Below are positions 9,266 to 13,503 of a DNA stretch of 64,000 nt, one piece after another. The position numbers and the translations under genes are program-made. The stretch covers positions 12,834,001 through 12,898,000 of the forward strand of contig NW_027362762.1 in the NCBI RefSeq assembly GCF_046119375.1. The letters run 5' to 3'. Below the pieces are notes generated by a model. That model ran no database searches, was not told the origin of the DNA, and worked only from the letters and a program-made list of their open reading frames with translations. Numbering within the stretch: the first letter of the stretch is position 1; every line of letters starts with the position of its first letter. This DNA comes from Phyllobates terribilis. Lineage: Eukaryota.

Positions 9266-10560
9266 TGTTATGCACACGCCCGGGCTAAGCGGCGTGTGCG
9301 TGTGATTGGTAGTGATTCCACTGGACCGTGCCGGAGAGTGAATGCCTGGAGGGGCGTGACTAAGTATTCACCCGATCCGACCAGGGTCGCACGACGGCAT
9401 ACGACGCCAGTGCACCAAGGAGGAACCGAGCAGAGGGACCAGGTGCTACTCCAGGACAGACCCCGGACACGGCTGTTGACCCACACAGGGAAATACAGGA
9501 ACAGGCTGGTAGGGTGGCACACAGACTGGAGGGTATAGGCAGGCACGACTGGTATGCAGGCAGGGGGGTAAAGGCAAGCACAGCTAGAGTGCAGACAGGG
9601 AGGCACTAGCAGGTAGGAACACAGGCGGGATAGAACCCAGTACACACCGGGACTCAGGAACAATACAGGCAGAGGGTTACAGGCAAGCACAGCTAGAGTG
9701 CAGACAAGGCTGAGCAGGGAGGACAGGGCTCTGTTCACACGGAACAGACAGGAAGGGAAAGACAGAGCCAGATACTCACACAGTACTTGCAGAGACAACA
9801 AGCAGGAGTTAGGTACGAGTTCAGACTCTGCAGAAAAAGGAAGGGAACGGACATAGAGGCAAAACAGGTAAAGGACAGGAGAGAGTTCAGACTGGAACTG
9901 AGTGTACGGAGGAGACCGACACTGCAGAGGGATACAGGAGCGGGTCTGGGAATACGGCCCCCAGAGAGGCGGAACGAACAGGCAAGGAGCGTGTTCAGAC
10001 AGGACAGACCAGACACAGGAGCGGGTCTAGGAAATCGGCCACTAGAAGGCGAGAGGAACAGGCTAGGAGCGTGTTCAGACAGGACAGACAAGAGAACACA
10101 GAAAGGAGTCAGTTCAGACACGGGAGCTGATACCGCAAAGCAGGAGACATACAGGACTCAGTTCAGACACGGGAGCTGATACCGCAAAGCAGGAGACATA
10201 CAGGACTCAGTTCAGACACGGGAACTGATACAAAAAGCAGGAGACAAGAGACGGGACCTGGCACCTTCAGAGTGCAAGCACACACTGAAGGAAACACTAT
10301 GCTCAGGCAGGGATAGAAGGGAGCTGCTGAGCTATATACCAAGTGACAGACAGCAATAGGCTGAGGACGCACAAGGGGTGTGACCCACAGCAGGTACAAA
10401 AGGCAGGAAGTGATCGGGCGCCGCCCTTAAGCAGCAGAAACAGACACAAACAGACAGCATGGAGGGAAGCCAGAGAGACATTCTGGACAGGAGATCAAGT
10501 GCGCCCTCTTGCACAGTGGGAGATGGACCACCATGCAAGGACGCCGCCAGGTATGTTACA
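9266..10560 (-). repeat. 3' LTR of the gag-only element
   Basis: Near-identical to 12209-13503 (offset 2943). One substitution seen (G9514 vs C12457). Confidence 0.95.
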
Positions 10561-12065
10561 GTACCTCCCCCCTTACGCCCCCTCTTCTTCAGGCCTGCCA
10601 GAATCTTCCGCAGGGAATTCGAGGGCCAGTCGTTCACTGGGTTGGAGGGGGACAGAGACTTAAGGGTAATCTCTGCTTCGAGGTACATCTTGTCAAGCTC
10701 ACAGGAAGAAATAGATGGGTTATCACGTACATAATGAGGAAAAGTCACTGTCTCTTTGTTATCTGGTGGTATCCCGGAGGATTCAGGAAACAACTGGAGG
10801 TCCTCCGCCGGGTCAGAAGAGTGCAGAGGCTCAGAGAAAACAACTGCTTCAGAGTACACTAGGTCGGACTCACTGGAGGAAGCAGGCGAGGTATCGGGTA
10901 CCGAGTATAGGAAAGTCTCTGTCCATTCACCACCAGGTGGCACCCCGAAGGGTTCTGGAGACAGCTGGCGGTCCTCCGCCTGGTCAGAGGGGTGTAGAGA
11001 CTCACGGGTAACCTCTGCTTCAGAGTACACTAGGTCGGACTCACTGGAGGAAGCAGGTGAGGTATCGGGTACCGAGTATAGGAAAGTCTCTGTCCATTCA
11101 CCACCAGGTGGCACCCCGAAGGGTTCTGAACACAACTGGAGGTCCTCCGCCTGGTCGGAGGGGTGTAGAGACTCAGGAGTAACCTCTGCTTCGGAGTACA
11201 CTAAGTTGGACTCACTGGACGAAGCGAGCGAGGTATCAGGTACAGAGTATAGGAGAGTCTCTGTCCTTTCGCTACCAGGTAGCACCCCGAAGGGTTCAGG
11301 AGACAACTGGAAATCCTCCGCCTGGTCGGAGGGGTGTAGAGACTCGGAGGTAACTACCACTTTGGAGCATCCTTGGACATGCACACCGGTTAAAGAGAAA
11401 GAAGCATCTGATGCCGGGTGCAGGAAGTTCTCCTGTGTGGAGTCTGGATGGGCAGAAGTCTCTTCGGCCAGGAGAACTGGTGCACTACCCACACACATTA
11501 CCCATTGGGGTTTCTCCGGGATACAGGGAGATGAAGCTTCAGTAGGGACTTCAAGGTTGGGGTCAGGAGGTCTCAGGGAGGACAGACCCTGGCGTGACGG
11601 CTTGCCTCTAAGTCTAGCACGTCTGGACTGCCTCTTGAGGTTGAGAGAAGTATTCCGGAAAGCGTAGTCACCCTGTGAGGATTCTGGGTGGGCAGTAGTC
11701 TCATTGGGCTGGAGGACTATTGCGCTACCCACACACATTACCCGTCGGGGCTGCTCCGGGATATTGGGAAGTGAAGCTTCAGCAGGGGCTTCAGAGTTAG
11801 GGTCCTCGAAGACCATACGAAAAGCCACCAGGAAGGCCTGCAGGTCAAGGATGACAGGATCCCATGCTTCCCATAGGGGGGTGACCCATTTCAAGGCATC
11901 ACCCGCTAGGTAATCAATCATAAAGGCCACTTTAGCCCAATCGGAAGGAAAATAGAGAGGGTAGGCCTTAAAGTGTAGCATGCATTGCTCCACAAATGCA
12001 CGACACTGTCTTGGATCCCCATAGTAACGTGGCGGATCCGCAGGAACGAGGGCTGATAGATCCAT
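10332..12065 (-). CDS. Retrotransposon Gag (LDOC1/RTL-like capsid domain) with a repeat-rich C-terminal extension reading into the 3' LTR, 577 aa
   Basis: N-terminal PPRYYGDPRQCRAFVEQCMLHF...AKVAFMIDYLAGDALKWVTPLWE resembles sushi-type gag. About four 57-aa (171-bp) acidic Ser/Pro repeats follow. No stops or frameshifts. Confidence 0.8.
   Translation of the reverse strand: MDLSALVPADPPRYYGDPRQCRAFVEQCMLHFKAYPLYFPSDWAKVAFMIDYLAGDALKWVTPLWEAWDPVILDLQAFLVAFRMVFEDPNSEAPAEASLPNIPEQPRRVMCVGSAIVLQPNETTAHPESSQGDYAFRNTSLNLKRQSRRARLRGKPSRQGLSSLRPPDPNLEVPTEASSPCIPEKPQWVMCVGSAPVLLAEETSAHPDSTQENFLHPASDASFSLTGVHVQGCSKVVVTSESLHPSDQAEDFQLSPEPFGVLPGSERTETLLYSVPDTSLASSSESNLVYSEAEVTPESLHPSDQAEDLQLCSEPFGVPPGGEWTETFLYSVPDTSPASSSESDLVYSEAEVTRESLHPSDQAEDRQLSPEPFGVPPGGEWTETFLYSVPDTSPASSSESDLVYSEAVVFSEPLHSSDPAEDLQLFPESSGIPPDNKETVTFPHYVRDNPSISSCELDKMYLEAEITLKSLSPSNPVNDWPSNSLRKILAGLKKRGRKGGGTVTYLAASLHGGPSPTVQEGALDLLSRMSLWLPSMLSVCVCFCCLRAAPDHFLPFVPAVGHTPCASSAYCCLSLGI
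10561..10575 (-). promoter_or_regulatory. Polypurine tract of the gag-only element
   Basis: Minus strand reads AAGGGGGGAGGTAC immediately before the TG of the 3' LTR. Confidence 0.85.
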
Positions 12066-12196
12066 CTGGACGGGTGCGTAACTCGCCTGGAACTCAGCTA
12101 AAGGGGGGAAAAAATTTATTTATTTTATTTTAATGCATGTATTCGCTGGAAAAACTTCTCAAAGAGCGAAGGCCGTGGGGCTCAACGGGAACCATG

Positions 12197-12206
12197 GCCT
12201 GAGCAT
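12197..12206 (-). promoter_or_regulatory. Non-tRNA primer-binding site (ATGCTCAGGC), complementary to the element's own predicted 5' end
   Basis: Lies 2 nt inside the 5' LTR boundary, does not start with TGG, and is exactly complementary to GCCTGAGCAT at 13251-13242. Confidence 0.8.
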
Positions 12207-12208
12207 GC

Positions 12209-13503
12209 TGTTATGCACACGCCCGGGCTAAGCGGCGTGTGCGTGTGATTGGTAGTGATTCCACTGGACCGTGCCGGAGAGTGAATGCCTGGAGGGGCGT
12301 GACTAAGTATTCACCCGATCCGACCAGGGTCGCACGACGGCATACGACGCCAGTGCACCAAGGAGGAACCGAGCAGAGGGACCAGGTGCTACTCCAGGAC
12401 AGACCCCGGACACGGCTGTTGACCCACACAGGGAAATACAGGAACAGGCTGGTAGGCTGGCACACAGACTGGAGGGTATAGGCAGGCACGACTGGTATGC
12501 AGGCAGGGGGGTAAAGGCAAGCACAGCTAGAGTGCAGACAGGGAGGCACTAGCAGGTAGGAACACAGGCGGGATAGAACCCAGTACACACCGGGACTCAG
12601 GAACAATACAGGCAGAGGGTTACAGGCAAGCACAGCTAGAGTGCAGACAAGGCTGAGCAGGGAGGACAGGGCTCTGTTCACACGGAACAGACAGGAAGGG
12701 AAAGACAGAGCCAGATACTCACACAGTACTTGCAGAGACAACAAGCAGGAGTTAGGTACGAGTTCAGACTCTGCAGAAAAAGGAAGGGAACGGACATAGA
12801 GGCAAAACAGGTAAAGGACAGGAGAGAGTTCAGACTGGAACTGAGTGTACGGAGGAGACCGACACTGCAGAGGGATACAGGAGCGGGTCTGGGAATACGG
12901 CCCCCAGAGAGGCGGAACGAACAGGCAAGGAGCGTGTTCAGACAGGACAGACCAGACACAGGAGCGGGTCTAGGAAATCGGCCACTAGAAGGCGAGAGGA
13001 ACAGGCTAGGAGCGTGTTCAGACAGGACAGACAAGAGAACACAGAAAGGAGTCAGTTCAGACACGGGAGCTGATACCGCAAAGCAGGAGACATACAGGAC
13101 TCAGTTCAGACACGGGAGCTGATACCGCAAAGCAGGAGACATACAGGACTCAGTTCAGACACGGGAACTGATACAAAAAGCAGGAGACAAGAGACGGGAC
13201 CTGGCACCTTCAGAGTGCAAGCACACACTGAAGGAAACACTATGCTCAGGCAGGGATAGAAGGGAGCTGCTGAGCTATATACCAAGTGACAGACAGCAAT
13301 AGGCTGAGGACGCACAAGGGGTGTGACCCACAGCAGGTACAAAAGGCAGGAAGTGATCGGGCGCCGCCCTTAAGCAGCAGAAACAGACACAAACAGACAG
13401 CATGGAGGGAAGCCAGAGAGACATTCTGGACAGGAGATCAAGTGCGCCCTCTTGCACAGTGGGAGATGGACCACCATGCAAGGACGCCGCCAGGTATGTT
13501 ACA
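12209..13503 (-). repeat. 5' LTR of the gag-only element
   Basis: Copy of 9266-10560, followed on the minus strand by the PBS and gag. Confidence 0.95.
13242..13281 (-). promoter_or_regulatory. LTR TATA box and predicted transcription start
   Basis: TATATA at 13281-13276 starts 30 nt upstream of the PBS-complementary GCCTGAGCAT (13251). Confidence 0.7.

Follow-up and report, generated by a model that had tools for sequence, protein, structure and literature searches.

The 64,000-nucleotide (nt) window analysed here lies on contig NW_027362762.1 of Phyllobates terribilis and contains, on its minus strand (13503-9266), a long terminal repeat (LTR) element with a gag-derived open reading frame (ORF), no pol, and a primer-binding site (PBS) that matches its own LTR. 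All coordinates are those of the window. The two LTRs measure 1295 bp each and have TG...CA ends; their alignment gives one substitution as the sole difference (12457 G / 9514 C), in agreement with the single difference counted by eye in an initial annotation of this DNA. The same annotation had listed an intact target-site duplication (TSD) and a polypurine tract (PPT), both of which we could read in the sequence. The TSD is present on both sides (TATAG on the minus strand, CTATA on the plus strand), and the insertion target is a 35-bp minisatellite that the element interrupts. The absence of pol, also claimed before, is borne out by tblastn, in which two related Pol proteins found no significant match in the element (best E values of 2.4 and 0.37).

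The element belongs to a large family. A 15-mer across the LTR end and the PBS matches the 10.6-Gb assembly exactly at 9,200 sites, and the control at none. Eighty-nine of these matches continue differently, and subtracting them leaves ~9,100 copies, a figure raised by haplotype duplicates and lowered by the exact-match requirement. Two pairs of loci (L002/L003 and L177/L178) have identical flanking bases on small contigs and are likely duplicated haplotypes, so that raw copy counts are somewhat high. An 18-mer from the primer site occurs 15,494 times in the assembly. By an estimate of copy number times ~5 kb, the family amounts to roughly 45 Mb. Twenty of the 89 deviating matches (L139-L158) were inspected and rejected as a coincidental look-alike in a dispersed repeat: none is an LTR element, and a control pattern gave 0 matches. 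This repeat appears to contain a hAT transposase gene, judging by its motifs.

Two sets of copies were compared. The unselected set consists of the first 40 listed matches of the LTR/PBS junction, all of them family members. The best-matching set comprises 38 copies: 40 were scored out of 751 candidates, and of these the copy in the window itself and a tandem neighbour were left aside. Pol was found between the LTRs in 0/40 unselected and 0/38 near-identical copies, and the pol matches in the unselected set fall outside the LTR pairs. Internal regions measure 1477-1990 nt in all 38 best-matching copies and range over ~1.4-2.9 kb among the unselected ones. Across 29 LTR pairs there are 50 substitutions in 40,008 nt, and the TSD is intact in 27 of 28 scorable cases. 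Over the last 600 nt of the LTR, the median divergence in 39 unselected copies is 0.17% (25 at <=0.5%, maximum 3.8%). No difference between 5' and 3' LTRs recurs, each of the ten top contexts having been seen once. The copies are dispersed and have TG...CA LTRs, a PPT and a TSD in the 4-6-bp range, as LTR retrotransposons do, and they have been amplified as a family that lacks pol. The earlier view of the element as non-autonomous, very young and recently mobile is thus sustained: the family is young and has been amplified over several subfamilies. LTR length spreads over ~1.3-2.2 kb because the numbers of 49-bp and 80-bp repeats in R-U5 change among copies, with U3 constant at ~250 nt.

Gag-only LTR elements of this type are TR-GAG-like. 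LTRs around a single gag-like ORF without pol have been described for Xenopus 1a11, xretpos(L) and lambda-olt 2-1, for zebrafish Bik-1/Bik-2 and for chicken ENS-1 (PMC4585706, PMC12067270). Of these, 1a11 encodes a 71-kDa Gag-like protein (PMC4585706), and Bik-1 is young and depends on a partner for Pol (PMC12067270). Bik-1 differs from the present element in being a lokiretrovirus with a full capsid, and xretpos(L) in being said to use the transfer RNA (tRNA) tRNA-Arg. The reported pol-less vertebrate families number tens to hundreds of copies, compared with ~9,100 here. The likeness to Xenopus 1a11 is one of described organisation.

On sequence comparison, the 577-amino-acid (aa) ORF is gag-derived yet not a whole gag; of the capsid, it contains only the N-terminal lobe (N-lobe). 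The only Pfam match is DUF4939 at aa 11-86 (E 2.2e-6, 28 bits, cut-off 29), and the alignment to related Gags stops at the start of the C-terminal lobe (C-lobe). None of the coiled-coil, C-lobe, zinc-knuckle and Pol regions of two related families, A and G, matches any frame of the element at E < 0.3. A complete Gag has both capsid lobes and a nucleic-acid-binding domain, a set that the 577-aa ORF lacks. In the structure model, five helices are predicted at a predicted local distance difference test (pLDDT) score of ~90 or more over residues 11-90, with disorder beyond. A profile search matched the N-lobe to residues 23-109 of the Ty3 capsid (E 0.0013), and a fold search returned weak neighbours, capsid lobes only, all at E >= 0.19. 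A single-sequence PDB search with the ORF gave nothing meaningful, and none of 63 candidate longer homologues reached E <= 0.001. Beyond the N-lobe, the ORF is acidic and rich in Ser, Pro and Thr, with 57-codon repeats; it then runs through LAGLKKRGRKGGG over the PPT and into U3, and stops at the TAG within TATATAG of the 3' LTR. Since coiled coil, C-lobe and zinc knuckle are missing, the ORF product alone is unlikely to build a particle, and the earlier proposal that the element supplies its own Gag is not supported. With half a capsid only, the shell is likely borrowed as well.

The half-capsid frame is nevertheless kept. Among the 40 unselected copies, 33 keep it open as far as the PPT and 32 have the basic tail, despite the spread of internal lengths; the repeats are 57 whole codons. 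The ratio of non-synonymous to synonymous substitution rates (dN/dS) is 0.39 for the N-lobe and 0.81 for the following 140 codons, and the variants shared among N-lobes comprise 25.5 synonymous and 32.5 non-synonymous changes over 60:210 sites. Upstream of the ATG, a pyrimidine tract plus YAG occurs in 40/40 unselected copies (at a distance of 32 nt in 30 copies, 31 nt in 10), which suggests a spliced mRNA. Such conservation tells against the idea that the protein is irrelevant to mobilisation, the RNA parasitising helper particles and the ORF being a hitch-hiking relic, or a brake like RTL8 on PEG10. That idea does accommodate the unspliced leader of 1,186 nt with seven ATGs upstream of the ORF, the weak splice donors, the lack of any splice joint at the candidate acceptor in RNA contigs of six runs, and the near-neutral evolution of the ORF tail; moreover, RTL8, an N-lobe-only protein, enters PEG10 particles and reduces their abundance (PMC11684626). 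A benefit in cis more readily accounts for selection on the ORF that a mobile element itself carries, and we regard an irrelevant or braking protein as rather unlikely. Raw RNA reads of another organism, 0 and 8 in number, leave the element uncovered. The greater depth of RNA contigs over the LTR was set aside, as contigs cannot show a start or an expression level.

A capsid N-lobe retained alone beside disordered regions is known from RTL8 and LDOC1, members of the sushi-derived RTL/SIRH genes (PMC10516033), and RTL8 forms no particles alone but joins PEG10 particles (PMC11684626). RTL8 and LDOC1 are fixed host genes without LTRs, whereas the half capsid described here lies within a mobile, multi-thousand-copy element. 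We found no mobile N-lobe-only sushi family in the literature; Butler 2001, the 1a11 paper and Repbase/Dfam lay outside this search and may cover one. Self-priming itself is not new and is expected for the Tf1/sushi group; the half-capsid design is the newer part.

A genome search for a pol-bearing element with the exact PPT of the gag-only family gave 0 matches. A looser pattern, a chromodomain motif plus the gag-only PPT boundary, gave 57 matches, of which 38, a lower bound, are alike by eye and constitute family G, described from 20 fetched of the 57. The members of family G are chromoviruses whose gag and pol lie in different frames; they contain GGGAAAC, presumably a slippery site as in PEG10. 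Its LTRs begin TGTAG and have a U3 of ~240-265 nt, and its integrase ends in a chromodomain followed by LKKRGRK or a variant. It shares the GGTAC/TGTA boundary with the gag-only family, as well as DNA identity of 73-81% in U5 and 82-90% before the PPT. Capsid lobes of G are 46-56% identical to those of the gag-only family, compared with 36-45% for families A-E, which have no DNA match to the gag-only element, and a tree joins G and the gag-only family with support of 86/77. The gag-only element is linked to G through capsid lobe, U5 and a relic of the integrase tail. The pol domains of this clade are seen in the relatives, in family A by Pfam and in family G by tblastn and the chromodomain end. 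Young G copies have an LTR divergence of 0.3-1.2%, and several keep long open frames. Because capsid lobe, U5 and pre-PPT DNA are common to both and young open copies exist, family G, the nearest relative found, is the most probable helper. The autonomous partner with the same LTR and PBS anticipated by the initial annotation did not appear: the primer pair of G, the nearest autonomous family, is a different one and matches within G itself. Junctions of the A-E type number 985 (control 61); with the at least 38 G-like matches, they remain far below the gag-only copy count.

With self-priming upheld, it is unlikely, though conceivable, that the element is at present helped by family A, or by a sushi-type family outside the sample, and that G is only nearest by descent. 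Family A is young, with LTR pairs 98.4-100% identical over ~800 bp and many open frames of 1498-1499 codons that carry reverse transcriptase, ribonuclease H (RNase H), integrase and chromodomain; its PBS is one base apart from the gag-only PBS, and only 150 of 46,493 capsid candidates were scored. Family A, however, has no LTR or leader DNA in common with the gag-only element (best E 0.48), its PPT boundary is another one, and the identity of its capsid lobe is 36%, where G reaches ~50%. A further group, family F (6 loci with CAGGCCATGG after the PBS in common), is decayed, without an LTR pair or a perfect primer match, and was rejected as a present helper.

With regard to priming, the PBS ATGCTCAGGC (12206-12197) has no TGG start and is, as first noticed in the initial annotation, the exact complement of the LTR 10-mer GCCTGAGCAT (13251-13242), 30 nt past the TATATA at 13281. 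When the LTR was shuffled by dinucleotides, this exact 10-mer arose in 20/20,000 cases, and in 161/20,000 if a start 0-4 nt past the LTR was allowed. Among the 3' LTRs of the unselected copies (39 scorable of 40), the 10-mer is perfect in 38 and stands 30 nt after the TATA in 38. The columns flanking it are variable, down to 17-22 of 39 copies identical, and the conserved island begins and ends exactly with the PBS pairing. One copy (L020) has the primer 10-mer altered in both LTRs and the PBS unaltered, the intermediate that would be expected if the PBS caught up one cycle later. Variants of the PBS and spacer gave 114 matches (control 14), mostly single C>T changes.

The same arrangement is found in relatives. 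In 40 loci of four pol-bearing families, drawn from 150 scored DUF4939 matches out of 46,493 candidates, the own-LTR complement of the own PBS is perfect in 33 and has one mismatch in 7, and it sits ~30 nt after a TATA-like box. Four of six family E loci have a perfect match; in family G, 12 of the 14 copies with a located junction are perfect in at least one LTR, and 6/20 have no locatable junction. As negative controls, a perfect upstream complement was seen in 0/14 non-E loci and 0/20 look-alike sites. Two G copies carry private compensated pairs, L183 with the change in both LTRs and the PBS at a non-CpG position, and L179 with changes at CpG sites that affect its PBS and its 5' LTR. Altogether, ten distinct primer/PBS pairs occur across the gag-only and related families, with two-sided change in 7/10 columns; the families are interrelated, and the ten pairs are therefore not statistically independent events, but each change is still matched. 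The compensatory changes for which the initial annotation asked are thus present, and the PBS has the marks of the Tf1/sushi group: it complements the 5' LTR just past the TATA without a tRNA-type TGG, and the complementarity is maintained by compensated change in relatives. By this comparative evidence, self-priming of the gag-only family is well supported, and transcription is predicted to start at 13251. The DNA fetched contained 0 tRNA genes. Priming by a host tRNA or tRNA fragment, with an LTR match that is chance or structural only, could appeal to the pol-less xretpos(L), suggested to use tRNA-Arg (PMC4585706), but is most improbable given a PBS without TGG and ten different PBS sequences each matched by its own LTR (two private to single sampled copies), since under tRNA priming the PBS would revert to the sequence of the tRNA instead of following the LTR.

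Three papers state that elements of the Tf1/sushi group, vertebrates included, commonly have a PBS that pairs with the predicted 5' end of their RNA (PMC10085805, PMC4600332, PMC6317226), and one of them describes for Tf1 a three-duplex pretzel around the PBS (PMC10085805); PMC2864245 and PMC3601003 give general background. The gag-only PBS complements its own predicted RNA 5' end like those of Tf1/Tf2 (S. pombe), Tj1 and the Tf1/sushi group. Folding of 1,083 nt gave primer:PBS pair probabilities of 0.94-1.0, and this helix, the central duplex of the pretzel, is predicted for the gag-only element, with a U5 extension of only 4 bp past a 2x2 loop, and for families A and C. Tf1 has a primer of 11 nt. 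Unlike the Tf1/sushi group, the gag-only element has a 10-nt primer, a 2-nt spacer after the LTR, half a capsid and no pol and, unlike in Tf1, its primer-PBS loop spans 1.0-2.0 kb.

Taken together, we interpret the element as probably a recent copy of a high-copy, pol-less Tf1/sushi (chromovirus) element that is likely self-primed and likely depends on a related autonomous family for its enzymes, reverse transcriptase and integrase, and for the greater part of the capsid. Transcription would begin at 13251, 30 nt after the TATA, and nt 1-10 of the RNA would pair with the PBS ~1,045 nt downstream, as the sequence allows and folding predicts. By analogy with Tf1, helper RNase H would cleave after nt 10, and the fragment would prime minus-strand DNA; strong-stop complementary DNA (cDNA) would then be joined to GCCUGAGCAU, not to a tRNA. 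The compensated pairs suggest that each new PBS is a copy of the primer and that the pair stays matched in this way; if the primer rewrites the PBS, element and helper need not share one. Integration produces 5-bp TSDs. The family may have arisen by internal deletion of a G-like ancestor, with N-lobe and integrase tail retained and the gap filled by acidic repeats. Enzymes and shell would be supplied in trans. In the weakest step, the half-capsid protein would co-assemble into helper particles and favour packaging of its own RNA; its role in mobilisation is the least certain part.

Several observations weigh against this interpretation. The RNA start, the RNase H cut and strong-stop DNA were not observed in contigs, which cannot show a start, or in reads, which do not cover the element. 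The primer:PBS helix is not in the predicted fold of families B and D, nor of 5/9 G copies, and the third duplex of the Tf1 pretzel, with sequence after the PBS, was not found in the predicted fold; of the complete Tf1 signature proposed earlier, the primer/PBS pair holds, the pretzel is seen only in part, and the start is a prediction. Dead-end copies ending at the PBS were not found among 89 matches, 20 of them inspected, with a filter that catches ~1/3 of random flanks. AATAAA or ATTAAA occurs in R-U5 of 0/39 gag-only copies, so that the RNA 3' end is unexplained; AATAAA is likewise absent from all sampled R-U5 of families A, B, C and G, with one ATTAAA among 16 others. The dN/dS values come from non-independent pairs, and singletons are also below 1 (0.58). 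The sister placement of G has only modest support (86/77), and outside U5 little LTR sequence is common to G and the gag-only family. As family A, moreover, is of equal youth and also contains long open frames, the identity of the helper is uncertain.

Self-priming has reportedly been demonstrated experimentally in yeast Tf1; for the sushi-type elements of vertebrates it has only been inferred. With ~9,100 copies, a sharp 10-nt footprint, a base-exact predicted start and natural compensated variants, the present family would allow a cheap test in an animal. An element that brings its primer in cis, and whose PBS is likely rewritten by that primer, can parasitise a helper with a different primer, a freedom that may ease large pol-less expansions such as this one. 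The half capsid, the integrase-tail relic and the named relative G are the part most worth following, and a half-capsid ORF under selection connects mobile elements with domesticated N-lobe genes. We tentatively go one step further, to a possibility that we do not favour outright: a half-capsid parasite whose fused N-lobe, acidic spacer and basic integrase tail, under purifying selection and made from spliced RNA, enter the helper particle and bring in the parasite's own genome, so that the parasite outnumbers the helper ~hundredfold. If true, such an element would correspond, in mobile form, to the domesticated RTL8 and LDOC1 and would suggest a plausible way in which genes of this kind originate.

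Table 1. Positions of the element's features in the window.
Feature	Position	Strand	Basis
TSD, 5' side (CTATA on plus)	13504..13508		LTR-flank comparison
5' LTR, 1295 bp, TGTAAC...TAACA	12209..13503	-	LTR alignment
TATA box TATATA	13276..13281	-	Sequence; TATWTA with equal spacing in 38/39 copies
Predicted RNA 5' end and self-primer GCCTGAGCAT	13242..13251	-	Start site inferred
Predicted hairpin directly 3' of primer	13207..13234	-	Folding
R-U5 tandem repeats, 49-bp and 80-bp units	12877..13189	-	Repeat scan, copy comparison
Predicted U5 hairpin adjoining LTR end	12215..12242	-	Stem conserved, loop variable across subfamilies
PBS ATGCTCAGGC, 2 nt past LTR end, without TGG	12197..12206	-	Sequence
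A/T-rich stretch, AATAAA hexamers, pyrimidine tract, YAG	12098..12134	-	Candidate splice acceptor or poly(A) signal
577-aa ORF: capsid N-lobe, acidic Ser/Pro repeats, relic integrase tail, U3-encoded end	10332..12065	-	
Capsid N-terminal lobe, aa 1-92 (DUF4939 aa 11-86; five predicted helices)	11790..12065	-	
In-frame 171-bp (57-codon) repeats, 3.5 copies	10765..11354	-	Repeat number differs among copies
LAGLKKRGRKGGG, putative relic of family G integrase C-terminal tail, overlaps PPT	10561..10601	-	
PPT	10561..10590	-	Sequence
3' LTR, 1295 bp	9266..10560	-	LTR alignment
TSD, 3' side (CTATA on plus)	9261..9265		LTR-flank comparison

Some copies depart from the structure listed in Table 1. An older subfamily copy (L087:1946-2480) has two tandem capsid N-lobes within one ORF. 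In L032, L033 and L177-L180, the 5' and 3' LTRs of a single copy differ by whole repeat units; strand transfer during reverse transcription of two RNAs packaged together may be the cause, or else unequal exchange at a later time. L028 (G000:C2:294784345-294793545) consists of tandem elements with three LTRs, neighbours sharing one LTR, and several pairs of matches ~3.1-3.5 kb apart are tandem-like in the same way. In PMC11042837, Tf1 cDNA is described as retaining the PBS copied into single-stranded DNA and forming tandems that share one LTR, and integrase-independent Tf1 insertion as yielding such tandems, comparable with L028.

Around the element, the 35-bp minisatellite array occupies positions 7307-9262 and 13507-14668; it has open frames, hence the spurious long ORFs beside the element. 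Elsewhere in the window, degenerate (CCCTAA)n-like arrays at 23615-23940 and 27328-27911 adjoin a 377-bp tandem repeat.

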